From an uncultured Oscillospiraceae bacterium (lineage in GTDB: Bacteria > Bacillota > Clostridia > Oscillospirales > Oscillospiraceae), in the NCBI GenBank assembly GCA_964523945.1, contig CAZGBU010000002.1:1-53755 (forward strand): a DNA stretch of 53,755 nt. The letters are read 5' to 3'. Below, piece by piece: positions 40,458-53,009 of the stretch. Numbering within the stretch: the first letter of the stretch is position 1; every line of letters starts with the position of its first letter. The notes below the pieces were generated by a model. The model made no database searches and had not been told where the DNA came from. It saw nothing but the letters and a program-made list of their open reading frames with translations. A program made the position numbers and the translations under genes.

Positions 40458-41627
40458 TCAGCAGAGGATCAATGTCTTAGGCGTTTGGGTCAGACATTCG
40501 GCGCCGTCTTTTGTAATCAGGAAATTATCGCAGGTGATGCCCCAGCCGTCCGCATTGGCGGCGACAGGGTGGACAGCGAAGAACATATTCTCCTCCAGCA
40601 CGAAATCCTCATCTGCTACAAGCGCAGGGCGTTCGACCATGTCCAGCCCCTGCGAGTGGGCGAACAGCCGGCCCTCCGGACCAAAGCCGTGCGCGGTGAG
40701 AAATTCGTTATTGGCCCGGAACAGCTCCGAGCAGCGGACACCAGGCTTCATCATCGAGACAACATGACGCTGGCAGGCGGCGGCGCACTCGGCAGCTTCG
40801 ATCATACCGTGGCTCGGCTCGCCGAGCGACCAGACCCGGAACAGTTCGGCGAAGTATCCTCCGGGACCGCTCAGCTCGATCAGGCACATCATGTTGTCGC
40901 CCGGCTCGACACGGCGATAGCGCTCGCACAGCTGGCTCATGCCCGGAATGCCCTGTGCGGTACCCAGGCCGACGTTCAGTCCTTCGCAGCCGAAGTCCTC
41001 GGCCAGCTTTTTCAGATCGGCGACCATCTCAAACTCGTAGCGCCCCGGCCGGAAGATGCTCGGCACTGCCGCGCCAATGCGGTCGTGGATGCGGACAATT
41101 TCGCGCAGTTTCTCGATTTCTTCCGGGCTTTTGATCGCCTTGATGCGGTCGACAAGCGTTGTGGCGTCGACCATTTCCACGTCCGGCAGATTCTCTTTCA
41201 GGTACGCGTACAGCGAAGCGGGGATCTGTGCCATGGCGACAAAGCCGATCCGCTTGTAGCCGCGCGCACGGATCTGCTCAGCTACAAGGCGTGGCATATA
41301 GGGGTCAGTATAACACAGTGTGGGCATCAGCGGCGTAGCCAACGCCTGACCGATGCCGCGCTGCAAGCCGGGCGGGATGCTCTGCGTGCCGACGGCGCCG
41401 TGTGCGATCAGCGTCGTCTCGTCGTCGCGGTGGAACAGAATCGTCGTGGGATAGTTGCCGATCGGAAGATCGGTGAAATAGCGCGTATAGCCGCCGAGCA
41501 GGTTGTCATAGTTGTGCACGACAAGACAGTCGAGCGCCTCGCGCGCCATTGCTTGACGGACAAGCGTCCAGCGGCGCTGCATCTCGCCCTCGCTCATTGC
41601 GTGACGGAAGCGTTCAGACAGGGGCAT
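40458..41627 (-). CDS. M24-fold protein (creatinase/prolidase-like, Xaa-Pro peptidase family) with substituted metal-ligand positions
   Basis: Creatinase_N-like N-domain plus pita-bread C-domain (GPGGYFAELFRVW, AHSQGLDMVERP). By-eye alignment puts Glu/Glu/His/Glu/Asp where M24B has Asp/Asp/His/Glu/Glu. Confidence 0.65.
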   Translation of the reverse strand: MPLSERFRHAMSEGEMQRRWTLVRQAMAREALDCLVVHNYDNLLGGYTRYFTDLPIGNYPTTILFHRDDETTLIAHGAVGTQSIPPGLQRGIGQALATPLMPTLCYTDPYMPRLVAEQIRARGYKRIGFVAMAQIPASLYAYLKENLPDVEMVDATTLVDRIKAIKSPEEIEKLREIVRIHDRIGAAVPSIFRPGRYEFEMVADLKKLAEDFGCEGLNVGLGTAQGIPGMSQLCERYRRVEPGDNMMCLIELSGPGGYFAELFRVWSLGEPSHGMIEAAECAAACQRHVVSMMKPGVRCSELFRANNEFLTAHGFGPEGRLFAHSQGLDMVERPALVADEDFVLEENMFFAVHPVAANADGWGITCDNFLITKDGAECLTQTPKTLILC

Positions 41628-41802
41628 TGCAGTTCCTCCTTTTACTCAGTGAAACAAAGCGGATGATTACGCTCGTTACCTATCTTATTATCTTAAAGAA
41701 TCGCACCGGGGCTCCGCAAGAGGCAGAGCAGACAAAACTGCTGCAGGGTTTCTCAGCAAGATGACCAGCCCCAATTCCAGCCGGAATTCTTTGCTGCGAT
41801 CA

Positions 41803-41831
41803 TTGACAGACGTCTCCGGGCGGGGTATAAT
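41803..41831 (+). promoter_or_regulatory. perfect-consensus sigma-A promoter of the citF-led operon
   Basis: TTGACA-17 nt-TATAAT. An AGACGTCT palindrome sits in the spacer, and TATGT-TTT-ACATA (41845-41857) in the early transcribed region. Confidence 0.7.
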
Positions 41832-41877
41832 AAAATAACGAAATTATGTTTTACATAGTGAAAGGAAGGGAGCCGAT

Positions 41878-43428
41878 ATGGAACTGATCCGCAATGCGCT
41901 CGGCCGGGAGATTCCCGATTTTGTAGAGACCTACGGCGAAGTCCGCCCGTACCGGGGCGCGTTTGCCTCGCTTGGCGAGCATGAAACAGTCCCGGCGCGC
42001 CGTCGCGCCGCTGTGCCGGGGGAGAACAAGGTGCTTTCGTCTCTGGCAGAGGCAATTCAGAAGAGCGGCCTGAAAGACGGCATGACCGTCTCGTTCCACC
42101 ACCATCTGCGCAATGGCGACAAGGTGGTCAATCAGGTGATGCAGGCGATCGCCGAGGCCGGGCTGAAAGACATTCATCTCGCGGCGACGGGCCTGTTCAA
42201 GTGCCACGAGCCGCTGGTGGAGCTGATGGAGCGCGGCGTTGTGACCAAGATCACGACCAGCACGTTCAATCCCGGACCGGTGCCAAAGGCGGTAACGGCC
42301 GGCAAGCTGCGCAAGCCCGCGGTCCTGATGACGCACGGCGGCCGCCCGCGCGCGGTGGCGGAGGGCGAGCTGCACATTGACGTGGCGTTTATTGCAGCGC
42401 CGAGCTGCGACTGCATGGGCAACCTCAACGGCACGACTGGGCCGTCGGCCTGCGGCTTCCTGTCGTATGCATACGCTGACGCGCAGTATGCCGACTGTGT
42501 CGTCGCCGTAACGGATCATCTGGTCGACTATCCCTGCATGCCGATTGAGATCAGCCAGGAGCAGGTCGATTATGTGGTGCCCGTCGAGTCCATCGGCGAC
42601 CCGTCCGGCATTGTCTCCGGCACAACGGAGATTACAAAAGACCCGGTGCGGCTGGGCATCGCGGCGGACACGGCGAAGCTGATCGATGCGGCTGGCTATC
42701 TCAAGCCCGGCATGTCGTTCCAGACCGGCGCGGGTACGACCTCGCTCGCAGTGGCGGCCGAGGTTGGCCGGATGATGCACGAGCGCAATATCGTCGGCTC
42801 GTTTGCAAGCGGCGGCATTCATGCTTATCTCGTACAGATGCTCGAAGAGGGGATGTTTCGCGCGCTGGTCGACGTGCAGTGCTTCGACCTCGAGGCGGTG
42901 CGCTCCGCACGCGACGACAGCCGCCACCTCGGCATGAGCGCCGCAATGTATGGCGATATGCACAGCCGCGGCTGCCTGGTGAATAACTTGGATGTGGTCA
43001 TCCTCGGCGCAACGGAGATCGACGTTGACTTTAATGTCAATGTTGTCACTGGCTCCGACGGGACGATTATGGGCGCCTCGGGCGGCCACAGCGACACGGC
43101 GGCCGGCGCTAAGCTGACGATTGTCGTGTCGAATCTGATGAAAAAGGCGCGCTGCCTGGTCAAAAAGGCGGTGACGACCGTCACCACGCCGGGCGAAACC
43201 ATCGACGCGCTGGTGACCGAATATGGCATCGCGATCAACCCGCGCAGAACCGATCTGCTCGAGCGGCTTGCCGGCTCCGGCCTGCCGCTTGTCACAATGG
43301 AGGAGCTCCTGCAGAAGGGCTATGAGCTTGGCGCGCAGGAGGATCACCCGAACCTGACCGGCCGCATTGTCGCGCTGGTCGAATACCGCGACGGCACCAT
43401 CATCGACGTGGTGCGTCAGCCTGTCTGA
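41878..43428 (+). CDS. citF: citrate lyase alpha subunit homolog (citrate CoA-transferase family)
   Basis: Collinear with remembered E. coli CitF: GMTVSFHHHLRNGD, HIDVAFIAAPSCD, MSFQTGAGTTSLAV, NVNVVTGSDGTIMGASGGHSDTA, VEYRDGTIIDVV. Confidence 0.85.
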   Translation: MELIRNALGREIPDFVETYGEVRPYRGAFASLGEHETVPARRRAAVPGENKVLSSLAEAIQKSGLKDGMTVSFHHHLRNGDKVVNQVMQAIAEAGLKDIHLAATGLFKCHEPLVELMERGVVTKITTSTFNPGPVPKAVTAGKLRKPAVLMTHGGRPRAVAEGELHIDVAFIAAPSCDCMGNLNGTTGPSACGFLSYAYADAQYADCVVAVTDHLVDYPCMPIEISQEQVDYVVPVESIGDPSGIVSGTTEITKDPVRLGIAADTAKLIDAAGYLKPGMSFQTGAGTTSLAVAAEVGRMMHERNIVGSFASGGIHAYLVQMLEEGMFRALVDVQCFDLEAVRSARDDSRHLGMSAAMYGDMHSRGCLVNNLDVVILGATEIDVDFNVNVVTGSDGTIMGASGGHSDTAAGAKLTIVVSNLMKKARCLVKKAVTTVTTPGETIDALVTEYGIAINPRRTDLLERLAGSGLPLVTMEELLQKGYELGAQEDHPNLTGRIVALVEYRDGTIIDVVRQPV

Positions 43429-43468
43429 GCGTTTCCCAAATCTTTTACATATCAGGAGGAACACAAAA

Positions 43469-44362
43469 ATGGAAGTCATGAGAACCAGTCTGTACATCCC
43501 TGCAAACAATCCGGTGTTTGTCGGCAAGTGCTCGAAGTATCCCGCAGACATCATCACCTTTGACATTGAGGACGCCGTCCCGCCGCAGGAGAAGGCCAAC
43601 GCCCGCAAAATGGCGGCCGACAACCTGATCAAGGCAGGCGAAAACGGCGCGGAGGTCTATGTCCGCGTCAATGGCTGGCACACCGAGTACACCAACGACG
43701 ACCTTGAGGCCGTTGTCCAGCCGGGGCTGAATGGCATCACCCTGCCGAAAACCCGCAACGCCGACGATGTCAAACGCCTCGACTGGAAGATCTCCGAGCT
43801 CGAAGAGCGCCGCGGCATCCCGGCCGGCACCGTCAAGATTTCCGTCCTGCTCGAGACTGCTGAGGGCATCATGAACGCCTATCAGATCTGCACGGCCAGC
43901 CCGCGCATCGTCTCCGCGTTCTTCGGCGCCGTCGACTACTGCGCCGACCTGCGTATCACCCGCACAAATCTTGCCGAGGAGCAGAAAGTCGCCCGCACAA
44001 TCGTCGCCATCGCTGCGCGCGCTGCCGGCATCGTCGCGCTCGACGCGCCGTTCGCCGACTACTCCAACATGGACGACTTCCGCCAGAACACGCTTGACGG
44101 CCGCCAGATGGGCTACGAGGGCCGCATGATTATCCATCCGAGCCAGATTGCCGTTGCGCACGAGCTCTATTCCCCGACGGCTGAGGAAGTTGAGCATGCC
44201 GCCAAGGTCAAGAAATTCTTCGAGGAAGAGGGCCTGGCCAAGGGCCTTGCCTCCGTCTCGATGGATGGCGCGATGGTCGATACGCCGGTCTATGTCAGCG
44301 CCTGCCAGGTGCTTGAGCGCTATGAAGCGATTCAGGCCAAGGAGGCCGCCGGCAAGAAATAA
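43469..44362 (+). CDS. citE: citrate lyase beta subunit / citryl(malyl/citramalyl)-CoA lyase family (HpcH/HpaI aldolase fold)
   Basis: SLYIPANNP...FDIEDAV...VRVNG...LPKT...LLETAEG...FGAVDY...IHPSQI motifs of CitE. AGGAGGA SD. Confidence 0.8.
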   Translation: MEVMRTSLYIPANNPVFVGKCSKYPADIITFDIEDAVPPQEKANARKMAADNLIKAGENGAEVYVRVNGWHTEYTNDDLEAVVQPGLNGITLPKTRNADDVKRLDWKISELEERRGIPAGTVKISVLLETAEGIMNAYQICTASPRIVSAFFGAVDYCADLRITRTNLAEEQKVARTIVAIAARAAGIVALDAPFADYSNMDDFRQNTLDGRQMGYEGRMIIHPSQIAVAHELYSPTAEEVEHAAKVKKFFEEEGLAKGLASVSMDGAMVDTPVYVSACQVLERYEAIQAKEAAGKK

Positions 44363-44377
44363 GGGAGGGACTTCTCT

Positions 44378-45331
44378 GTGAAAATCGTTCTTCTCGAACC
44401 GCTGGGCATCTCTGCCCAGCGGCTCGAAGCGCTCTCTGCCGGCCTGATCCGGCAGGGGAATGAATTTGTCGCCTATGACACGGTCGAGACCGATGTCGAG
44501 GCGCTTAAAAAACGTGCGGCGGGTGCCGACATTCTGATGATCGCGAACCATGCCCTGCCGGGCGAGGTGATCGAGAGCGTCGACAATCTCCAGTATATCT
44601 CAGTGGCGTTCGTCGGCATCGACCACATCGGCAAGGATGCCTGCGTGAAGAAGGGAATTCGCGTTTCCAATGCAGCGGGCTATTGCCGGGACGCGGTGGC
44701 GGAGCTGGCGCTTGGTCTGGCGCTCGATTGCCTGCGCAACATTTCTGCATGCAACGACGTCGTCCGCCATGGCGGCACAAAGGACGGCCTGATTGGGCAC
44801 GAGCTGCATGGCCGCACGGTCGGCATCATCGGCACCGGCGACACCGGCATCCGCACCGCGGAGCTCTACCGCGCATTTGGCTGCCGCGTCCTCGGCTATA
44901 GCCGCACCGAGCGCGAAGCGGCCAAGCAGGCGGGCATTGTGTATGTCCCGCTTGACGAGCTGCTTGCGCAGAGCGATATTGTCTCGGTCCACACGCCGCT
45001 GACCGATCAGACACGCGGCCTGATCGGTGCAGACGCGGTCGCGAAGATGAAGCCGGGTGCGATCCTGATCAACACCTCGCGCGGCCCCGTGGTCGATTCA
45101 CAGGCGGTTGCGGACGCGCTCCGCAGCGGCCGGCTTGGCGCGATGGGTACGGACGTGTTTGAGGATGAGCCGCCGGTTGCGGCAGATCATCCGCTGCTGA
45201 CGGCGCCGCACGTCGTCGCGACGCCGCATGTGGCGTTTGCTACGCTGGAATCCATCGACCGCCGGGCACAGATCACGTTTGACAACGTGGAAAAATGGCT
45301 GCAGGGCACGCTGCAGAATCCAATGCTGTAA
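44378..45331 (+). CDS. D-isomer-specific 2-hydroxyacid dehydrogenase (PGDH/GhrB-like)
   Basis: GRTVGIIGTGDTGIRTA NAD fold, INTSRGPVVD, TDVFEDEP, ATPHVAF (Arg-Glu-His triad context). GTG start behind AGGGAGGGA. Confidence 0.8.
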   Translation: MKIVLLEPLGISAQRLEALSAGLIRQGNEFVAYDTVETDVEALKKRAAGADILMIANHALPGEVIESVDNLQYISVAFVGIDHIGKDACVKKGIRVSNAAGYCRDAVAELALGLALDCLRNISACNDVVRHGGTKDGLIGHELHGRTVGIIGTGDTGIRTAELYRAFGCRVLGYSRTEREAAKQAGIVYVPLDELLAQSDIVSVHTPLTDQTRGLIGADAVAKMKPGAILINTSRGPVVDSQAVADALRSGRLGAMGTDVFEDEPPVAADHPLLTAPHVVATPHVAFATLESIDRRAQITFDNVEKWLQGTLQNPML

Positions 45332-45346
45332 ACGGCAGGTGGCGAT

Positions 45347-46126
45347 ATGGAAGAAAAACTCTCCAAGCTGAATCAGTCGGTGGAAAAGACCATGCGGCTG
45401 GTGGAGATCATGGCGCGCTCCGGCGCACCACGCAAACTCCAGAGCATCGCGCAGGAGGCGCAGATGCCGGCCAGTACGGCGCTGCGGATGCTCAACACCA
45501 TGCTGACGCTTGGTTATGTCAACCAAGATCCGGAGACGTTGAAGTATTCTCTGTCGCTGAAGTTTACCCATCTGGGAGAACAGGCTGCGGCGCAGGTCAG
45601 TCCGACGTCGCTGGCGCACCCACTGCTGGCTGCGCTGAGCCGTAAGACAGGCGAGTGCACCTGCTTCGCGGAGGAACAGGATGATCAGGCGGTCTATCTC
45701 GACGTGGTTTCTGACAGCGCCGACAATATCCTGACCATTACACGCCGGATCGGCAAGCGCGCCCCGCTGTACTGCACAGGTGTCGGAAAGCTGTTTCTGC
45801 TCAACGACACGCACGAGGAGTTGGAGCAATATTTCCAGCGGACGCCGATTGTCCGCTACACGGATCACACCATCACGACGCTCGCGGAGCTTGAGACGGA
45901 GCTTCAGACGATCCGCGCCAACGGCTTCGCCTACGACAATGAAGAGTGCGACCGCGGTGCGCGCTGCATCGCCGCGCCGGTGCGCAACTATACCGGGCGC
46001 GTTGTTGCGGCCATCAGCGTGACGGCACCGTCGCAGCGCATGACGGCTGAACGGATGGAGGGCCTGATTCCATTGGTGCAGGAAACCGCGGTGCAGATCT
46101 CCCGCAAACTGGCCTATGGCGGCTGA
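45347..46126 (+). CDS. IclR-family transcriptional regulator
   Basis: N-terminal wHTH (KTMRLVEIMARSGAPRKLQSIAQEAQMPASTALRMLNTM) and a C-terminal IclR effector domain (GFAYDNEECDRGARCIAAPV). Confidence 0.85.
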   Translation: MEEKLSKLNQSVEKTMRLVEIMARSGAPRKLQSIAQEAQMPASTALRMLNTMLTLGYVNQDPETLKYSLSLKFTHLGEQAAAQVSPTSLAHPLLAALSRKTGECTCFAEEQDDQAVYLDVVSDSADNILTITRRIGKRAPLYCTGVGKLFLLNDTHEELEQYFQRTPIVRYTDHTITTLAELETELQTIRANGFAYDNEECDRGARCIAAPVRNYTGRVVAAISVTAPSQRMTAERMEGLIPLVQETAVQISRKLAYGG

Positions 46127-46138
46127 ACGGAGGATTGT

Positions 46139-47137
46139 ATGAAGTTATCGAAAATTGCTGTATTTGCCGACGCCCCGATGCACCATGTGACGCAGGAGGA
46201 TCTCACAACCCTGCGCGCTGCGGCACCCGACGTGGCAATCTACCTGGTAGACACGCCGCAGGAGCTCGCGCAGCTTGCACCGGATGTGGATGCCATCTTT
46301 ACCATGCCGGTGCGCGACTTTACGCCGCTGATCGAATACTGCGCCGGCGACCCGAATCTCAAATGGCTCCAGCTGATGACGGCAGGGTTTGATTTCCTGT
46401 TCGGCACACCGTTTGAGCGGCAGCCGGGCCTGACGGTCACCTCGACGATCGGCATTCATGGCGAGCCGATTTCCGACCATGCGCTGGCGATGATGTTCGG
46501 CCATGTGCGACTGATGGCGGAGGCGTACCGGCTGCAGAGCCGGCATGAGTGGATGGGTGAAGTCACCCCCGGCTTTGATGAGATTGGCCGTAAGACCGTC
46601 GGTATCATCGGCCCCGGCGCGATCGGCATGTGCCTGGCGCGCAAGTGCAAGGCGCTCGGCATGACCGTCTATGGCGCAAAGCGCACGCCTGTGCAGAGCG
46701 AATATCTTGATCACTGCTGGCCGATTGCCGAACTCGACAAGATGCTGGCTGTGTCGGATTTTGTCGTTGTCACCTCGCCGCTGACCGAGCAGACACGCGG
46801 TATGCTGAACGCAGAGCGGTTCGCCGCAATGAAGCCGGGCGCGTATGTCATCAACCTTGCGCGCGGCCCGATCATTGTGAACGAGGCGCTGATCGACGCG
46901 CTGCGCTCGGGCCATATCTCTGGCGCCGGACTGGATGTGACGGACCCGGAGCCGCTGCCGGCAGACAGCCCGCTCTGGGATCTGCCCGGCGTGACGATTA
47001 CGAGTCATGTCTCGGCACAGTCGCCGTATTATTTCGAGCGCGCGCTGGAGAACTACTGCGAAAATGTGCGTCGTTTTCTTGCGGACGAGCCGCTGCGCAA
47101 CGTCTGCAAACAGCCGGACGGCGTGCTGACAAAGTGA
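46139..47137 (+). CDS. D-isomer-specific 2-hydroxyacid dehydrogenase, second paralog
   Basis: KTVGIIGPGAIGMCLA, INLARGPIIV, LDVTDPEP, TSHVSA. Confidence 0.8.
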   Translation: MKLSKIAVFADAPMHHVTQEDLTTLRAAAPDVAIYLVDTPQELAQLAPDVDAIFTMPVRDFTPLIEYCAGDPNLKWLQLMTAGFDFLFGTPFERQPGLTVTSTIGIHGEPISDHALAMMFGHVRLMAEAYRLQSRHEWMGEVTPGFDEIGRKTVGIIGPGAIGMCLARKCKALGMTVYGAKRTPVQSEYLDHCWPIAELDKMLAVSDFVVVTSPLTEQTRGMLNAERFAAMKPGAYVINLARGPIIVNEALIDALRSGHISGAGLDVTDPEPLPADSPLWDLPGVTITSHVSAQSPYYFERALENYCENVRRFLADEPLRNVCKQPDGVLTK

Positions 47138-47147
47138 GGGACAAGGC

Positions 47148-48056
47148 ATGAAAGCATTTATTATCGGCAGCGGAACGCTTGGATCGACAACGGCGTTCCT
47201 GCTGGCGGAGCACGGATTGTATGACGAGATCGTCCTGTTTGATACCTATGAGCCGCTGGCGCTCAACCATTCGATGGATCTTTTGCAGTCGGTCTGCCTG
47301 ACGACGAATGTCTCGGTTCGCCAGGGCGGGCTCGATCAGATGGAGGGCAGCGACCTGGTGGTGATGTCAGCTGGCCTGCGCTCGAAATCCAGCTCGCCGG
47401 ACTTTGTCGGGACAGCGGTGGAAATGGCCCCGTTGCTGACACAGATTGCCGACGCGCTGCGCACTGCGCCGAACGCCATTGTCATCACGATGACAAATCC
47501 GGTGGATGCACTCTCATATCTGCTCTGCCGGCTGTCCGGCCTGCCGGAGAAACAGTTCCTTGGTTTTACCTGGAACGATTCCTTGCGCTTTCGCTGGTCG
47601 ATTGCGCGTGGCCTCGGTGTCACGCCGGCGCAGGTCGACGCGTATATGGTCGGCGAGCATGGTATGTCCAAGGTGGCTGTCTGGTCGGATGTTCGTGTCG
47701 ATGGCGTGCCGCGTGTATTTACAGCGGACGAGCGCGCGCAGATTGGTGCGGCGCAGGACGCATTCTGGTCGGAATTTATGAAAGTCGGCAGCCTGCGCAC
47801 CGCCGGCTGGACGACGGCCTATGGCGCGCTGCAGCAGATCCACTATGTGCTCGGCGAGCTGGAAGGCTGGTGCCCGTGCTCGGCGATCACCGGCGATTAC
47901 AGTTCCGGCCGTCCGGCAAGACTGAGCCGCGAGGGCCTGGTGGAGCTCCGCCCGCTGCATCTGGCGGACGATGAGCAGGCGCTCTACGACCAGTCGATTG
48001 CCAGGATCCGCGGGATGATCCACGACATCGCACAGCAGGCTGGCTGGAAAATCTGA
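47148..48056 (+). CDS. L-lactate/malate dehydrogenase-family enzyme with atypical substrate loop
   Basis: IIGSGTLGSTTAF...LFD Rossmann, TNPVD, NDSLRFR, GEHG (catalytic His). The loop reads SAGLRSKSSSPDFVG instead of AG.(R/Q)K.G..R.DL. Confidence 0.7.
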   Translation: MKAFIIGSGTLGSTTAFLLAEHGLYDEIVLFDTYEPLALNHSMDLLQSVCLTTNVSVRQGGLDQMEGSDLVVMSAGLRSKSSSPDFVGTAVEMAPLLTQIADALRTAPNAIVITMTNPVDALSYLLCRLSGLPEKQFLGFTWNDSLRFRWSIARGLGVTPAQVDAYMVGEHGMSKVAVWSDVRVDGVPRVFTADERAQIGAAQDAFWSEFMKVGSLRTAGWTTAYGALQQIHYVLGELEGWCPCSAITGDYSSGRPARLSREGLVELRPLHLADDEQALYDQSIARIRGMIHDIAQQAGWKI

Positions 48057-48151
48057 TTTAAAACGGGAGAACGGCCCCTGCGGCGCAACGGCTGCAGGGG
48101 CTGTCTGCATTCCAGCCCGGCAAGGAGGCGTTTTCTCTGAACCAGTCAACG

Positions 48152-49498
48152 ATGATCCGGGATCTGACAACCGGCAATGTATTTCGCCAGCTTGTACGTT
48201 TTGCGATCCCGTTTGTGATCTCCAACACACTGCAGACGCTTTATAACATCGTCGACATGATCGTCATCGGCCATTTTGTTGGGGCGGTTGGGCTGTCAGC
48301 CGTTTCGACGAGCGCAGAGCTGATGACGCTTGGCACGATGATTGGCATCGGTTTTGCCACTGCCGGCCAGACGATGATCGCACAGTATGTTGGCCGCAAA
48401 GATGAGGCGGCCATCCAACGCACGGTGGGCAACCTGTTCACACTGATGCTGATTCTGGGCGTGTCGGTGATGCTGATTGGCTGCGCGTTTACCGGGCCGC
48501 TGCTCACTTGGATGAACACGCCCGCGGAGGCGCTCAGCCAGGCACGCGCATACGCGCTGATCTGCTTCCTCGGTATGGTGTTTATCTTTGGATACAACAC
48601 CGTCAGTGCAGTGCTGCGCGGCATGGGAGACAGTGTCCGCCCGTGCATCTTCATCGCGGTTGCCGCGGTGACAAATCTGGTGCTTGATCTTGTGTTTGTC
48701 GCCGGACTGCATATGGATGCGGCCGGCGCGGCGTTGGCGACGGTGATTGGGCAGGCTGTCTCGTTCATCGGCTCCATGATCTACCTGTACCGGCGGCGGG
48801 CGGCATTCTGCTTTGACTTTCGGCTGAGAAGCTTTGCGCTCGACAGCAAAACTGCGCGGATGATGTGCCGGCTTGGCCTGCCGATGATCGTTCAGTCGGC
48901 GGCGCTGAATCTCTCGCAGATGGTTGTCACGTCGATGGTCAATACGTTTGGCATTGTTGCCTCGACCGTCACCGGCGTCGGCAGCAAGATCTGTTCGGTG
49001 ATGAATATCTGTTCGCAGTCGCTCGGTGCGGGCGGCGCGTCGATGGTGGGGCAGAACCTCGGTGCGGGCAAACATGACAGGGTTGTCCGCATCTACTGGG
49101 AGACATTCGGAATTACGGCGGCCGCAGCTGTGATGTCTGTGATTATGCTTGTATGGCCTGAGCAGGTGTTCCGGCTGTTCAACACCGATCCGGAGGTCCT
49201 GGCCATGGCGCGGTCGTATTCAATTATCGCGGTCATCAACTTCTTCGGCTTTGCGCTGCGCACACCGGCACAGGCGCTCATCAGCGGACTCGGCTTCGCG
49301 TCGTACTGCCTGGCGATGGGGATTATGGACGGCGTTGTCGCGCGCATCGGGCTGTCGGCGCTGCTGTGCTATGGGCTGGACATGGGGATTTTTGGCCTCT
49401 GGCTCGGCGGCACGCTTGCGGGCTATGTGACCGGCGTGATGGGACATATCTATTACATGACTGGCCGCTGGCGCACCCGCCGCCTGGCCATCGAATAA
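48152..49498 (+). CDS. MATE family efflux transporter
   Basis: RDLTTGNVFRQLVRFAIPFVISNTLQTLYNIVDMIVIGHFVG N-terminus and 12 hydrophobic segments. No well-spaced SD for ATG 48152. Confidence 0.8.
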   Translation: MIRDLTTGNVFRQLVRFAIPFVISNTLQTLYNIVDMIVIGHFVGAVGLSAVSTSAELMTLGTMIGIGFATAGQTMIAQYVGRKDEAAIQRTVGNLFTLMLILGVSVMLIGCAFTGPLLTWMNTPAEALSQARAYALICFLGMVFIFGYNTVSAVLRGMGDSVRPCIFIAVAAVTNLVLDLVFVAGLHMDAAGAALATVIGQAVSFIGSMIYLYRRRAAFCFDFRLRSFALDSKTARMMCRLGLPMIVQSAALNLSQMVVTSMVNTFGIVASTVTGVGSKICSVMNICSQSLGAGGASMVGQNLGAGKHDRVVRIYWETFGITAAAAVMSVIMLVWPEQVFRLFNTDPEVLAMARSYSIIAVINFFGFALRTPAQALISGLGFASYCLAMGIMDGVVARIGLSALLCYGLDMGIFGLWLGGTLAGYVTGVMGHIYYMTGRWRTRRLAIE

Positions 49499-49500
49499 GT

Positions 49501-49541
49501 ACAAGCCCGGCATGGCCATGCGGCCATGCCGGGCTTGTTTG
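49501..49541. terminator. bidirectional terminator between the MATE and opine-dehydrogenase genes
   Basis: acaagcccggcatggcc-atgc-ggccatgccgggcttgt, a 17-bp stem followed by ttgt. Confidence 0.8.
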
Positions 49542-49551
49542 TATTGTGCGA

Positions 49552-50601
49552 TTATGAGATCATGCTGAGCATGCGCTCAAAATCGATGGCGTCCTCATTG
49601 CGGCCGGTACGGTAGAAGTCGCGGCGGTAGACAACATTGGCCCAGTGGATTGCAGCATCGATCACGTCCGTCCGAACGCCCAGCCTCCAGCCCAGCGAGC
49701 TGACCGGGACGCAGCCGGTCTGGATGTCCTCGAAGATATAGCGGGTGTCAATGTCGGTCGGTGCGAGCACGTCCTGATATGCGTGTGTGTTCTGGATGCG
49801 CTCATAGAGCGTGTCGCCCTGGGAACCATAGCGGTCCGCGAGCCACTCAGCGGCGGTCGGCACCGCCACACCGGCGGCTTTTGCCACGGCGACGCGCTCC
49901 GCATCGATCTGCTCGAGCACGCTGGCGACGAGCGGGGAAATGCCATCGATATAATAGCGGAAGTCCTCCTTGGCCTCGATGCGGGTGATGTTCATCAGGA
50001 TCGGCAGGGGATGGAATACCATGCCGATGTTGGACAACCCTGTTTCAAGCACACTGGCGGCCGGCTCCACGCTCGGAAACAGTTCCCGGAGCAGCGCTGT
50101 GAGGCGCGGTGTGTCGGCGTTATCGTGTCCGGCAACGCGCAGGCCGTGTTTGATTTCATAGATCACGGGATGACCGACCGCCTTGCAGCGGCAGGTGAAG
50201 ACGAACGTGTCCGTTTCGCCCAGGATGACGTTGGCAGTGCAGCCGCAGTCAGCGAGCGCTTTGGCAACAGTAAATGTGCCGAACGTGCGGCCGGGATTGA
50301 GTATGACAACCTGCCCGTCTGTGAGATACGGGGCCATCTCACGGGCGATGACGCCATGGTACTGCGCCGGTGTGGTGACCATGATCAGCTCTGCGCCTGA
50401 GATCACCTCGTCCATATGGCAGCTGATCAGGTCAACGTCTGTCTCACAGACAACCTGCCCGCTCAGCGAAAAGTGGCGCTCGGGAAACATATCCACGCGT
50501 GCCTGTTCGCGCGCGTAGAGCGTGACGCTGTGCCCCTGATTAGCCAGGTATGCGGCCAGTGACTGACCGCCGTTGCCCGAACTGATGACTGCAATCCGCA
50601 T
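49552..50601 (-). CDS. NAD(P)-dependent opine (octopine/nopaline) dehydrogenase-family oxidoreductase
   Basis: MRIAVISSGNGGQSLAAYLA Rossmann N-terminus. The C-half LSNIGMVFHPLPILMN...YIDGISP...DTRYIFEDIQTGCVP matches the Octopine_DH domain pattern. GGGAGGAAAG SD. Confidence 0.75.
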   Translation of the reverse strand: MRIAVISSGNGGQSLAAYLANQGHSVTLYAREQARVDMFPERHFSLSGQVVCETDVDLISCHMDEVISGAELIMVTTPAQYHGVIAREMAPYLTDGQVVILNPGRTFGTFTVAKALADCGCTANVILGETDTFVFTCRCKAVGHPVIYEIKHGLRVAGHDNADTPRLTALLRELFPSVEPAASVLETGLSNIGMVFHPLPILMNITRIEAKEDFRYYIDGISPLVASVLEQIDAERVAVAKAAGVAVPTAAEWLADRYGSQGDTLYERIQNTHAYQDVLAPTDIDTRYIFEDIQTGCVPVSSLGWRLGVRTDVIDAAIHWANVVYRRDFYRTGRNEDAIDFERMLSMIS

Positions 50602-52249
50602 CGTTGCTTTCCTCCCTTCCCAGAATCAGATCCAGCCGCTCATGCTCGGTCAGGAAGCGCTGCGTACCGGCGTCATATGCCAGGCATTTCCCATCGCGCA
50701 TGCGGGTGCTGAGTGAGCCGCGTGTACCGTCCGGCCGGACAATGTGCGGCGCGTCGAGAATGCCGCGGCGGATACAGTCGGACAGCACGGCGGCGTCTGA
50801 AAACGGGTCGGGGCTCTCCGGGTACTGTGTCTGAATGAACGAGAGCAGAACGCCCGCCTCGCGCAGCAGCTCTGCCTGCCGCTCCTGGACGCGCGGGTCA
50901 GCTGTCGCATCGGCGTTGCCCTGGAGGGTGGAGCGGACAACACCGCGGACGATCTTGCAGCTTTCGATGACAACCTCGGGCGTCGCGGCGTGCTCGGCCT
51001 CGCTGTAGCCTACGACATGGATGATGTCAGGGTGAACATTCATCGCCAGCGCAGTCGAGGCGGCAAGCTGTCCCTTGGCCACATCCATATCTGCGCTCAG
51101 GAATGGCAGCCCCGCGCGCACTTCACGATAGATGCGGAAATCAGGCCCTGCCAGCGACTGCACCAGCTCGTCCTGTGCGAGCACCTTAGCCAGATCCATC
51201 GAGAAGCTCATTGAATTGGGAATATTGAACATGTACTGGGAAACATAGTCGTGCGCGCCGTACGCTCTGGCGTTATAGGCGCTCAGATAGCTCATAACGA
51301 CGGAGATCACGTCGTGTGCGTCGCGCAGGCCCCAGTGGTGCGGTTCGTTGACTTCTACCGGAATGCCGCGCTCGCCGTGCCATGCGATCAGCGCTTGCGC
51401 TTCGCGCATGGACTGCTCCAAAGAACGGGTGCCGCGTCCGTCAAGCTCGTTGTACCAGCTCAGGGGGACGGCGCACCAGGCGTTGTCGATTGTCCGGTGC
51501 AGCACGTCTGCCAGGCGGAGCACATCTGCTGTGCCGCTGTAGCAGCGCATCAGCGGATAGTTGCCGCACTGGGAGGCCTGCTTCAGGCGCCGGAATTCCT
51601 CTTCGCTTCGGACGGGGACACCGCCTGCGCCGTCGGCGCGTGGATCGCGCTGATCCGGCCGGAAGAAAAACTGCTGCGTATTCTGGTCGATGCCGAGCGA
51701 GATCACATCAAGCACACGCGAGCGTGCAATCTGCTCCACACCCGCAATGGTCTGCTCCAGCGACGGCAGCCCAAAATGGTGCCGCAATAGCGGGTAGGGC
51801 CGCTTCTGTGCGCGGCGGCCGGGCAGGTCGGCGGCAAACGCCTCAGCCTGCTCGCTGCCGGCACGCACACCGGTGCGCAGGAACGTGATGCAGTCGTCCC
51901 AGTCCTCGGTCCCGTCAAAGATCACGTCGAAGAACCCGAGCTTTTCCACTTCGCGGGCGACCGGGTATGTACCGCCGAAGATCCAGACCGGCCGACGCGG
52001 AAGCGCGCAGCTTTTTTCCTTCAGCTCCTCCACAAGGGGAATGACGTTCGCCGGCGTCAGACGATAGCCCAGATCCACATAGTCGGGATCATACTCCAAA
52101 ACCGCTTCCATTACCCGGTCGACGCTGTTGGCCGGACCGAGAAAAATCGTTTCATAGCCTTCGTCTTCCGCCATGGCGAGAAAATGAACGACGCCGGCAA
52201 CATGGACGCAGCTGCCAATAGAGCCGCCGATCATTCGGCCTTTTTCCAT
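50540..52249 (-). CDS. single-chain fusion of a B12-binding-like Rossmann domain (GlmS/MutS-like) and a glutamate mutase E-subunit-like TIM barrel (uncharacterised mutase-like protein)
   Basis: N-terminus MIGGSIGSCVHVAGV...IFGG aligns to GlmS VIGSDCHAVGN...YVGG. The remainder is collinear by eye with GlmE (MRCYSGT / ARHGT, GIPVEVNEPHHWGL / GVHINREPFGPL, GILDAPH / GVMDIPF, MRDGKCLAYDAG / VRDNLGCVRYLEFG). AAGGAG SD before ATG 52249. Confidence 0.6.
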   Translation of the reverse strand: MEKGRMIGGSIGSCVHVAGVVHFLAMAEDEGYETIFLGPANSVDRVMEAVLEYDPDYVDLGYRLTPANVIPLVEELKEKSCALPRRPVWIFGGTYPVAREVEKLGFFDVIFDGTEDWDDCITFLRTGVRAGSEQAEAFAADLPGRRAQKRPYPLLRHHFGLPSLEQTIAGVEQIARSRVLDVISLGIDQNTQQFFFRPDQRDPRADGAGGVPVRSEEEFRRLKQASQCGNYPLMRCYSGTADVLRLADVLHRTIDNAWCAVPLSWYNELDGRGTRSLEQSMREAQALIAWHGERGIPVEVNEPHHWGLRDAHDVISVVMSYLSAYNARAYGAHDYVSQYMFNIPNSMSFSMDLAKVLAQDELVQSLAGPDFRIYREVRAGLPFLSADMDVAKGQLAASTALAMNVHPDIIHVVGYSEAEHAATPEVVIESCKIVRGVVRSTLQGNADATADPRVQERQAELLREAGVLLSFIQTQYPESPDPFSDAAVLSDCIRRGILDAPHIVRPDGTRGSLSTRMRDGKCLAYDAGTQRFLTEHERLDLILGREESNDADCSHQFGQRRSVTGRIPG

Positions 52250-52300
52250 CGCAATTCTCCTTTCTGGGCCAGGGCCCATGGTATGTGTTGGGGTACCCGG

Positions 52301-52930
52301 TCAGCCGTGCTGATTGACAAACTTTGAGACGGCGCCGACCGCTTCCGGCGCACAGACAAAAATGATCGTGTCGCCATCGTACAGTTCAGCCGTCGGCCCG
52401 GGCGAGAGAATGGTGTTCTGCCGCCGCCGGATTGCGACGATGGTTGCACCGGTCGCCTGCCAGAACTGCAGCGAGCTGAGGCTCCTGCCGATCAGTGGAG
52501 AGTCGGCCCTTACGCGCACCTCGTAATTCGGCAGCCCATGGTCCGATGGCAGCGGCAGCTCCTGTGCGCGGATGATCTCGTGGTACACGTCAAGCATTTG
52601 CCGGCTGATCTCGATGTGCTGTGCGAACAGTCCTTTCAGGCGGGAGCGAAGCTCCTGTGTCTGGTCACGTTCCTGACGGCTGGCCAGATAGCGGTGGGCA
52701 TTGTCAGCGGAGAGCACATAGACGCCTCTGCGGGGTTTGACCTCGACTACTTTCATGTCTGCAAGCAGACGTAGCGCGCGCCGGATGGTCTCGGGTGAGA
52801 CGCTGTATTCTGAGGCCAGCAGCGACCGGCCGGACATGCGCTCACCCTCAGCGATTTCCTTTTGAGCAATGCGCGATGCCAGATCCAGTGCGATCCGCTC
52901 GTACTGGGCGATGGAATCCGCTTCGTGCAT
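52301..52930 (-). CDS. GntR-family wHTH regulator fused to a TrkA-C (RCK_C) ligand-binding domain
   Basis: RMSGRSLLASEYSVSPETIRRALRLLADMKVVEVKPRRGVYV (GntR HTH), a coiled linker, then ADSPLIGRSLSSLQFWQATGATIVAIRR...GDTIIFV (TrkA-C). Confidence 0.75.
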   Translation of the reverse strand: MHEADSIAQYERIALDLASRIAQKEIAEGERMSGRSLLASEYSVSPETIRRALRLLADMKVVEVKPRRGVYVLSADNAHRYLASRQERDQTQELRSRLKGLFAQHIEISRQMLDVYHEIIRAQELPLPSDHGLPNYEVRVRADSPLIGRSLSSLQFWQATGATIVAIRRRQNTILSPGPTAELYDGDTIIFVCAPEAVGAVSKFVNQHG

Positions 52931-52980
52931 ATGACGCCGCCTCCTTTGTTATGCGATACGCCCCGGCTTCCTTCATGGAT

Positions 52981-53009
52981 ATTATAAACTAACAACTTTA
53001 AAAAATCAA
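52981..53009 (-). promoter_or_regulatory. sigma-A promoter of the gntR-mutase-like-opine DH operon
   Basis: Minus strand TTGATT-17 nt-TATAAT. Confidence 0.6.

Follow-up and report, generated by a model that had tools for sequence, protein, structure and literature searches.

A carrier-free descendant of citrate lyase in an uncultured Oscillospiraceae bacterium and its possible re-use in malyl-CoA metabolism

Genes and control signals of the operon

The stretch of DNA analyzed here (the window; 53,755 nt, contig CAZGBU010000002.1) comes from an uncultured Oscillospiraceae bacterium whose assembly (GCA_964523945.1; 2.16 Mb in 198 contigs) is 99.5% complete. On its forward strand lies an operon of seven genes that opens with homologues of the citrate lyase genes citF and citE. 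We assigned protein families with Pfam and NCBIfam profiles, and gene maps of related loci were obtained from homology maps and precomputed gene calls. Judging from these comparisons, we found that the operon encodes a descendant of citrate lyase with neither a carrier protein nor any means of cofactor synthesis, and that a lyase of another clade, here called CitE', has taken the place of the ancestral lyase subunit.

The first gene encodes a CitF-type family II CoA-transferase of 516 aa (41878-43428; TIGR01584), and the second encodes the acyl-CoA lyase CitE' of 297 aa (43469-44362; TIGR01588), whose true ATG is preceded by AGGAGG. Downstream of them, two D-2-hydroxyacid dehydrogenases (2-HADHs), type 1 of 317 aa (44378-45331; PF02826 and PF00389) and type 2 of 332 aa (46139-47137; PF02826), flank an IclR-family regulator of 259 aa (45347-46126; PF09339 and PF01614). 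An atypical dehydrogenase of the LDH/MDH family (302 aa; 47148-48056; PF00056 and PF02866) comes next, and a MATE transporter (448 aa; 48152-49498; TIGR00797, 216 bits) is the last co-directional gene. All seven open reading frames (ORFs) are intact, and the gaps between them measure 40, 15, 15, 12, 10 and 95 nt. These coordinates agree with a preliminary description of the sequence, which had reported seven co-directional genes with gaps of 10-95 nt and the order citF then citE. On the reverse strand, divergent from citF, lies the gene of an M24 hydrolase with Creatinase_N and Peptidase_M24 domains (40458-41627; PF01321 and PF00557).

Ahead of citF, we found a sigma-70 promoter, TTGACA-17-TATAAT, on the forward strand (41803-41831). 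It matches the consensus at 12 of 12 positions, as the preliminary description had said, and no second such site occurs within 41000-50800. When the window was aligned with two congeneric species, both hexamers were invariant, as was a block of the leader between the -10 hexamer and the ribosome-binding site (41834-41863, forward strand; AATAACGAAAT ... TTTTACATAGTGAAA), and the flanks had diverged. This block is a candidate operator for the IclR regulator. At the other end of the operon, a 17-bp GC-rich hairpin (49501-49538) sits between two convergent stop codons. A bidirectional terminator had been described there; the strong hairpin between convergent genes stands, while its action in both directions, given the modest T-tracts, can only be called plausible.

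CitF and the loss of the carrier protein and cofactor genes

Citrate lyase is the textbook example of an enzyme that depends on a carrier protein and a cofactor pathway of its own. The carrier, the gamma subunit CitD, bears a phosphoribosyl-dephospho-CoA arm on the Ser of its ES motif; CitG and CitX synthesize and attach this cofactor, and the ligase CitC acetylates it. The CitF protein of the window scored 609 bits against TIGR01584 (cut-off 501), 475 bits against PDB entry 2hj0 and 458 bits against 1xr4, and is about 60% identical to CitF of classical clostridial loci. A profile search of the whole genome of the bacterium gave zero matches to CitD (PF06857), CitX (PF03802) and CitG (PF01874), and CitC was not found in it either, the sole PF08218 match being CoaD (pantetheine-phosphate adenylyltransferase). 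A tblastn search of the same genome with a clade-type CitD as the query returned nothing, and no small ORF lies in the gaps of the operon. Three genomes of the same genus carry citF at 86-87% identity, and neither CitD nor CitG was found in them. As a positive control, a genome of the same family and another genus yielded three classical citDEF sets together with citG, indicating that the search does detect such genes where they are present. The absence of citD, citC, citX and citG had been noted for the window; it holds there and extends to the whole 99.5%-complete genome, in which all four are missing.

Compared with citrate (pro-3S)-lyase (EC 4.1.3.6) of E. coli, Klebsiella, lactic acid bacteria and Clostridia, the system has a homologous CitF and the same two steps, acyl exchange followed by aldol cleavage. 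It differs from that enzyme in lacking the gamma subunit CitD as well as CitG, CitX and CitC, in having a beta subunit from another CitE-like clade instead of an orthologue of the CitE of D-E-F loci, in the gene order F-E' in place of D-E-F, and in its partners, which are 2-hydroxyacid dehydrogenases, an IclR regulator and an M24 hydrolase.

We fetched 80 genome loci with CitF relatives and searched the genomes of the first 50 for CitD, CitG, CitC and CitX. Set against CitD-dependent CitF proteins in a tree, a comparison that the preliminary description had proposed, the window protein fell in a separate clade of 22 rows (SH-aLRT 99) nested in classical CitF. The sister of this clade is the CitF of the classical citDEF loci of C. 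ljungdahlii and C. ragsdalei, whose genomes have CitC, CitX and CitG. The clade ranges over gut Oscillospiraceae, Lachnospiraceae, Family XIII, Desulfovibrionaceae, Desulfosporosinus and a spirochaete, and most of its genomes are without the cofactor genes: CitC, CitX and CitG were all missing from 18 of the 20 tested. The two exceptions are C. thailandense, which has separate classical clusters on other contigs, and a metagenome-assembled genome (MAG) with CitG and CitX and without CitC or CitD. Among 69 genomes of Desulfitobacteriaceae, those holding only the window-type CitF were without CitG (16 of 16), and in the three with both CitF types, CitG adjoins the classical-type copy and is broken in one. 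In this last genome (G115, C1:3401605-3402415), the CitG gene beside the classical copy has three stop codons, and the lineage may have been caught losing the cofactor pathway.

One residue of CitF follows the fate of the carrier gene. Arg424 (window numbering; K-G-R-L motif) is invariant in all 61 classical sequences and is kept in 10 of 10 clade members with an adjacent citD, whereas all 12 members without an adjacent citD have G, A, T, N, S or P instead (Ala in the window). On the tree, these replacements amount to about two independent losses and should be read as a pattern, not as a statistic; the behavior would fit a residue that contacts CitD and was freed from constraint. Since Arg424 is replaced wherever CitD was lost, the pattern argues that CitD is truly gone. 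A strict comparison found no clade-defining substitutions in CitF (at least 85% in each group), and a relaxed comparison of the clade with classical CitF gave G196S/A, T315H and the loss of R424. Two records in the data set deserve mention here. The CitF of a record titled Thermoplasmata archaeon (L063; 5.2 Mb) has Lys at the Arg424 position, and none of CitD, CitC, CitX, CitG and CitE' was found in this genome. A record titled 'Bacteroidaceae bacterium' (L027; CAVFYN010000171.1) has a citF operon 87% identical to that of the window and near-identical to the congener locus L028, and is probably a mislabelled or chimeric bin.

The remaining CitD proteins of the clade have changed as well. Classical CitD has the motif G-(T/S)-x-E-S-x-D. 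In the CitD of the F-E' subclade, this motif reads GSENKSD, GRDAKSD, GSERKGD or GSENPSD, so that K or P replaces the cofactor Ser, and ten tested genomes are wholly without CitD, including those of the isolates Allofournierella massiliensis, Brotonthovivens ammoniilytica and Pseudoflavonifractor phocaeensis. Of other isolates with the module, Lawsonibacter hominis NSJ-51 has the Lys form of CitD and Desulfosporosinus acididurans M1 the Ser form. The CitD of basal clade members keeps the Ser although their genomes have no CitX or CitG, so another route of modification is conceivable. The acyl group might then be tethered to the thiol of an unrecognized carrier, such as a pantetheinylated acyl carrier protein (ACP) or another small protein, rather than to free CoA. 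We consider such a carrier quite improbable, in view of the lack of a small ORF in the operon, the genome-wide absence of CitD from four congeneric genomes, the loss of the Ser in the F-E' CitD proteins and the release of Arg424 wherever CitD was lost.

Replacement of the lyase subunit

Orthologues of CitE' occur in every clade genome except that of P. phocaeensis. All the catalytic motifs are present in the protein (FDIEDAV, VRVN, LLETA, GAVDY and MVDTPV), giving the D-x-E-D motif, the Arg, the Mg-ligand Glu and Asp and the lid Asp, in line with the catalytic residues defined for the CitE-like superfamily (PMC3832036). CitE' proteins are 48-95% identical across genera (93-95% in congeners and 71-85% in most other genera compared), against 36-44% identity to classical CitE. 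On TIGR01588, CitE' scored 227 bits, compared with 313-338 bits for CitE of classical D-E-F loci. In a set of 1.84 billion cluster representatives, CitE' forms a compact family whose next neighbors are at most 44% identical and are all non-classical CitE-like proteins; the ten nearest representatives outside CitE' fall far below the cut-off of the CitE model. The contexts of the nearest of these (P0125 and P0126) were uninformative. In the CitE tree, the CitE' clade has a support of 100 and lies inside a group with a support of 97, whose other members are all database representatives chosen for their likeness to CitE'; none of them is the CitE of a classical D-E-F locus. Because the CitE' clade lies apart from the CitE of D-E-F loci, the old lyase was displaced by a non-orthologous relative.

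The residues listed above are shared with the stand-alone CitE-like lyases (Mcl, RipC/Ccl, CLYBL and M. tuberculosis CitE), which are independent of any CitD; those characterized act on free acyl-CoA (PMC3832036). In contrast to these enzymes, CitE' is paired with CitF and not with a family III CoA-transferase or a thiokinase, and its scores against those with solved structures reach merely 74-136 bits. Its length of 297 aa is close to that of classical CitE (289-294 aa) and suggests that it has no 30-40-residue insertion of the kind found in canonical Mcl (PMC3832036). From the missing carrier and the placement of the clade, we infer that CitE' acts on free acyl-CoA.

Traces of the old lyase gene remain in related genomes. 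Classical loci have the order citD-citE-citF, and this order is kept by basal clade members, namely Desulfosporosinus, a Peptococcaceae MAG and two gut Desulfovibrionaceae. The CitE encoded between citD and citF in these members is 229-240 aa long, covers model positions 3-234 of 288 and misses the C-terminal lid, and its Mg-ligand Asp is replaced (GAEDL to NAEGL, NAENF or NASGL). Throughout the superfamily, the lid Asp and the Mg ligands are absolutely conserved, and activity requires the lid (PMC3832036), so these copies are dead. In the tree, they nest inside classical CitE beside the C. ljungdahlii group, mirroring the CitF tree. The old CitE has shrunk to a 153-aa stub in one Family XIII MAG. 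Many CitF proteins of Oscillospiraceae are about 600 aa long and carry an N-terminal tail of about 90 aa that resembles the N-terminus of CitE; the window CitF has none. By this resemblance, the tail is a fossil of the displaced lyase gene. We considered a fused CitD and rejected it, since the tail weakly matches the N-terminus of CitE (PF03328 positions 6-64) and not ACP. In L021:9001-10818, P0012-P0017 and P0045, the remnant shows the motif G-N-D-P ... I-D-L-Y-E and continues in frame into CitF.

These states can be tentatively ordered, as part of the proposal set out below, in a series that would lead from a holo-ACP enzyme through a scaffold with dead subunits to a two-protein system working with free CoA. 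A third type of citD-citE-citF locus was observed in Geosporobacter, C. hydrogeniformans and a Fusobacteriaceae MAG (L068, L076 and L079). Its CitD reads GFEKEQD, GNEKSDD or GNEKASD, with no E-S motif, and the tree places its CitE apart from classical CitE; two tested genomes among the three also hold a second CitD together with CitC, CitX and CitG.

The operon itself might also be a decaying, non-functional remnant of a citrate lyase locus. The locus of P. phocaeensis (L053) may be such a case: it has a long-branch CitF of odd composition with a malic enzyme nearby and no CitE' in the genome, and this CitF is possibly a decaying copy. For the operon of the window, we regard decay as very unlikely, because its seven ORFs are intact, its CitE' is highly conserved within the genus and in most other genera compared, its promoter and leader are conserved, and the module recurs across many genera and phyla.

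Genomic context and possible function

The constant partner of CitE' is malic enzyme, which lies directly before or after it in nearly all lineages. In Desulfosporosinus, we found the order IclR - GlcF-like - GlcD-like - GlcD/E-like - CitE' - malic enzyme, and one of the GlcD-like proteins scored 495 bits on the GlcD model (cut-off 568). A widespread gut lineage of Desulfovibrionaceae has CitE' - malic enzyme - GlcD - GlcF - CitD - dead CitE - CitF in one cluster. In Desulfitobacteriaceae, CitE' occurs in 41 of 69 genomes and a SucC-like gene (SucC') in exactly the same 41, and the loci read have the order SucC'-SucD'-CitE'-malic enzyme. Outside this family, 16 genomes in which CitF and CitE' are linked were tested and gave no SucC homologue, and the genome of the window has no homologue of SucC or SucD. 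The complementarity of SucC and CitF was seen solely outside Desulfitobacteriaceae. Mutual replacement of SucC'D' and CitF within that family was rejected, as SucC' is present in all 41 genomes with CitE', 18 of which also have the window-type CitF.

The anaerobic malyl-CoA pathway, reported for Syntrophobotulus glycolicus, Moorella and others, consists of glycolate dehydrogenase, malyl-CoA lyase, an ATP-forming malyl-CoA synthetase and malic enzyme (PMC6313629, PMC8092247). The present loci resemble this pathway (S. glycolicus, Moorella sp. HUC22-1) in having a CitE-like lyase beside malic enzyme and a 2-hydroxyacid-oxidizing enzyme. The SucC'-SucD'-CitE'-malic enzyme operons of Desulfitobacteriaceae match the published enzyme set, the link between genes and activities being one that we infer. 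CitE' is the sole candidate for a malyl-CoA lyase in the genome of the window, and its orthologues stand in the SucC'D'-CitE'-malic enzyme and GlcDEF-CitE'-malic enzyme operons. Unlike the published pathway, this genome is without the ATP-forming synthetase, in whose place a CitF-type CoA-transferase is proposed, and NAD-type dehydrogenases would stand in for GlcDEF: no homologues of GlcD and GlcF were found in it, and NAD-type 2-HADHs are present instead. Its malic enzyme is encoded on contig C71, unlinked to the operon, and is 82% identical to the operon-linked one of L021. The segment C71:6555-11100 (L110) carries a FAD_binding_2 flavoprotein, the malic enzyme and a second M24 paralogue and then reaches the contig edge; it seems that some of the module lies on this contig, where an assembly break hides what follows.

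The other genes of the operon recur to different degrees. The type 1 2-HADH has orthologues at 46-58% identity in F-E' loci of other genera, and the type 2 enzyme is 37-42% identical to a 2-HADH recurring beside TRAP or DASS transporters in related loci. The label 'GhrA/B-type' for these two was not sharpened by NCBIfam or PDB sequence matches; for all three dehydrogenases, the PDB sequence matches were just generic LDH/MDH, PGDH, D-LDH and glyoxylate reductase neighbors. In the LDH/MDH-like protein, the loop reads AGLRSKSSSPDF, without an equivalent of Arg109, and Ser occupies the Gln/Arg102 specificity position (Gln in LDH, Arg in MDH); His195 (GEHG) and Arg171 (NDSLRFR) are kept. This protein is 37% identical to its homologue in L108, and in L109 an LDH-family gene that weakly matches it follows citE'. 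The best NCBIfam match of the IclR regulator is BhcR (167 bits, below the cut-off), and orthologues at 50-53% identity were found in L019, L030 and L032. A class V aminotransferase in sister loci resembles the BhcA-type aspartate:glyoxylate aminotransferase, also below the cut-off. The recurring 2-HADHs, the BhcR-like regulator and this aminotransferase would fit glyoxylate metabolism.

Orthologues of the M24 hydrolase lie beside the module in other genera at 51-65% identity; that of L107 is 65% and that of L021 54% identical, both next to malic enzyme-citF-citE', and the gene is absent upstream of citF in congeners. Four paralogues of the MATE transporter (48-57% identical) are encoded at other places in the genome. 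In the congener locus L028, no MATE gene follows the LDH-like gene, and that of the window is probably a local addition to the operon. In two metagenome contigs (L019 and L108), pairs of a glycyl-radical enzyme and its activase were seen within 10 kb of the module, twice in L108.

The preliminary description had suggested a CoA-transferase and an acyl-CoA lyase working on free CoA esters of a hydroxy-di/tricarboxylate, in a module distinct from classical citrate fermentation. Every comparative test run backed this suggestion: the clade-wide loss of citD, citC, citX and citG, the Ser-less CitD of the F-E' subclade, and the dead or missing ancestral CitE with CitE' in its place. We propose, with a probability of roughly 0.4, that gut Clostridia, Desulfovibrionaceae and others have turned a carrier-free offshoot of citrate lyase to a new use, as a malyl-CoA:acetate CoA-transferase and a malyl-CoA lyase. 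The odds that the operon serves the anaerobic malyl-CoA (glyoxylate/glycolate) pathway in a version based on a CoA-transferase are, in our estimate, slightly below even. CitF would act as a soluble enzyme that transfers CoA between acetyl-CoA/acetate and a hydroxy-dicarboxylate, and CitE' would make or break the C-C bond of a free acyl-CoA. Glyoxylate and acetyl-CoA would be joined by CitE' to (S)-malyl-CoA, CitF would convert malyl-CoA and acetate to malate and acetyl-CoA in place of the ATP-forming malyl-CoA synthetase, and the malic enzyme of contig C71 would turn malate into pyruvate and CO2. CitF is put in the place of the ligase because the genomes tested outside Desulfitobacteriaceae, in which CitF stands beside CitE' and malic enzyme, gave no SucC. 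The two 2-HADHs and the LDH/MDH-like enzyme may interconvert glyoxylate and glycolate or malate and oxaloacetate, as a source or an electron sink, and the IclR regulator would keep the consensus promoter repressed as long as no small acid such as glyoxylate is present.

The main rival, and a serious one, is that the pair has lost its carrier and still acts on citrate. CitF would make free (3S)-citryl-CoA from citrate and acetyl-CoA, CitE' would cleave it to oxaloacetate and acetyl-CoA, and the oxaloacetate would be disposed of by a CitM-like malic enzyme or by the LDH/MDH-like enzyme. In vitro, isolated classical citrate lyase subunits carry out the two partial reactions on free CoA esters, which counts for this explanation. 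It is also favored by CitF, which scores above the citF equivalog cut-off and has classical citrate lyase as its sister. Of 98 columns with a conservation of at least 95% in classical CitF, the protein retains 88, and basal clade members keep all 98 except Gly196. Columns so conserved give no clear sign of a remodelled acid pocket. Citrate would further fit the CitM-type malic enzymes that adjoin classical citDEF loci, 56-59% identical to those of the module, and the DASS transporters, the family of E. coli CitT, in the sister loci L107 and L108.

The conserved columns, the CitM-type malic enzymes and the DASS transporters also weigh against the malyl-CoA proposal, and several other observations add to them. 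The succinate-CoA ligase models give SucC' higher scores than the malate-CoA ligase model does. In Desulfitobacteriaceae, the trio of CitD, dead CitE and CitF is unlinked to CitE', and SucC'D' is present alongside it, so that the malyl-CoA step in this family does not depend on CitF. The genome of the window has neither GlcDEF nor a class V aminotransferase as a source of glyoxylate. The Ser kept in basal CitD belongs here too, and the substrate has been assigned solely from gene context.

Even so, we regard citrate as the less likely substrate. It would leave no role for the GlcD/GlcF-like genes that cluster with CitE', malic enzyme and CitF, or for two or three 2-hydroxyacid dehydrogenases, and the SucC'D'-CitE'-malic enzyme operons would need to be a new analogue of ATP-citrate lyase. 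The replacement of the resident CitE by a lyase of another clade would also go unexplained: the isolated classical beta subunit accepts free citryl-CoA, so the swap is easier to explain by a change of substrate.

Another acid may be the substrate instead, since lyases of the CitE family handle malyl-, citramalyl- and citryl-CoA alike (PMC3832036). The carrier-free pair might act on an analogue such as (S)-citramalate/citramalyl-CoA, tartrate or hydroxycitrate, with the dehydrogenases processing the oxo-acid product. A glutamate-mutase-like B12 operon just downstream (49552-53009) and the several dehydrogenases that match only generic families would suit this explanation. We nevertheless find it improbable, because malic enzyme, the sole constant partner, requires malate or oxaloacetate, the module contains no hydratase or mesaconase, and the annotated neighbors of the related loci read include no mutase-like gene.

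A full-text search of the literature returned no account of a natural carrier-free CitF/CitE system and no paper on the genes of the anaerobic malyl-CoA pathway. Having dropped the carrier and the cofactor pathway, this widespread lineage shows how a complex of this kind can simplify. The genes are automatically annotated as 'citrate lyase subunit alpha/beta', and metabolic reconstructions of gut anaerobes may wrongly credit them with citrate fermentation. If the malyl-CoA proposal is true, the operon would provide gene candidates for anaerobic glyoxylate/glycolate turnover in the gut, and a compact, ATP-neutral module of two enzymes from acetate and glyoxylate to malate for pathway engineering. 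It would then also represent a previously unrecognized ligase-free route joining glyoxylate/glycolate, acetate and malate in anaerobes.

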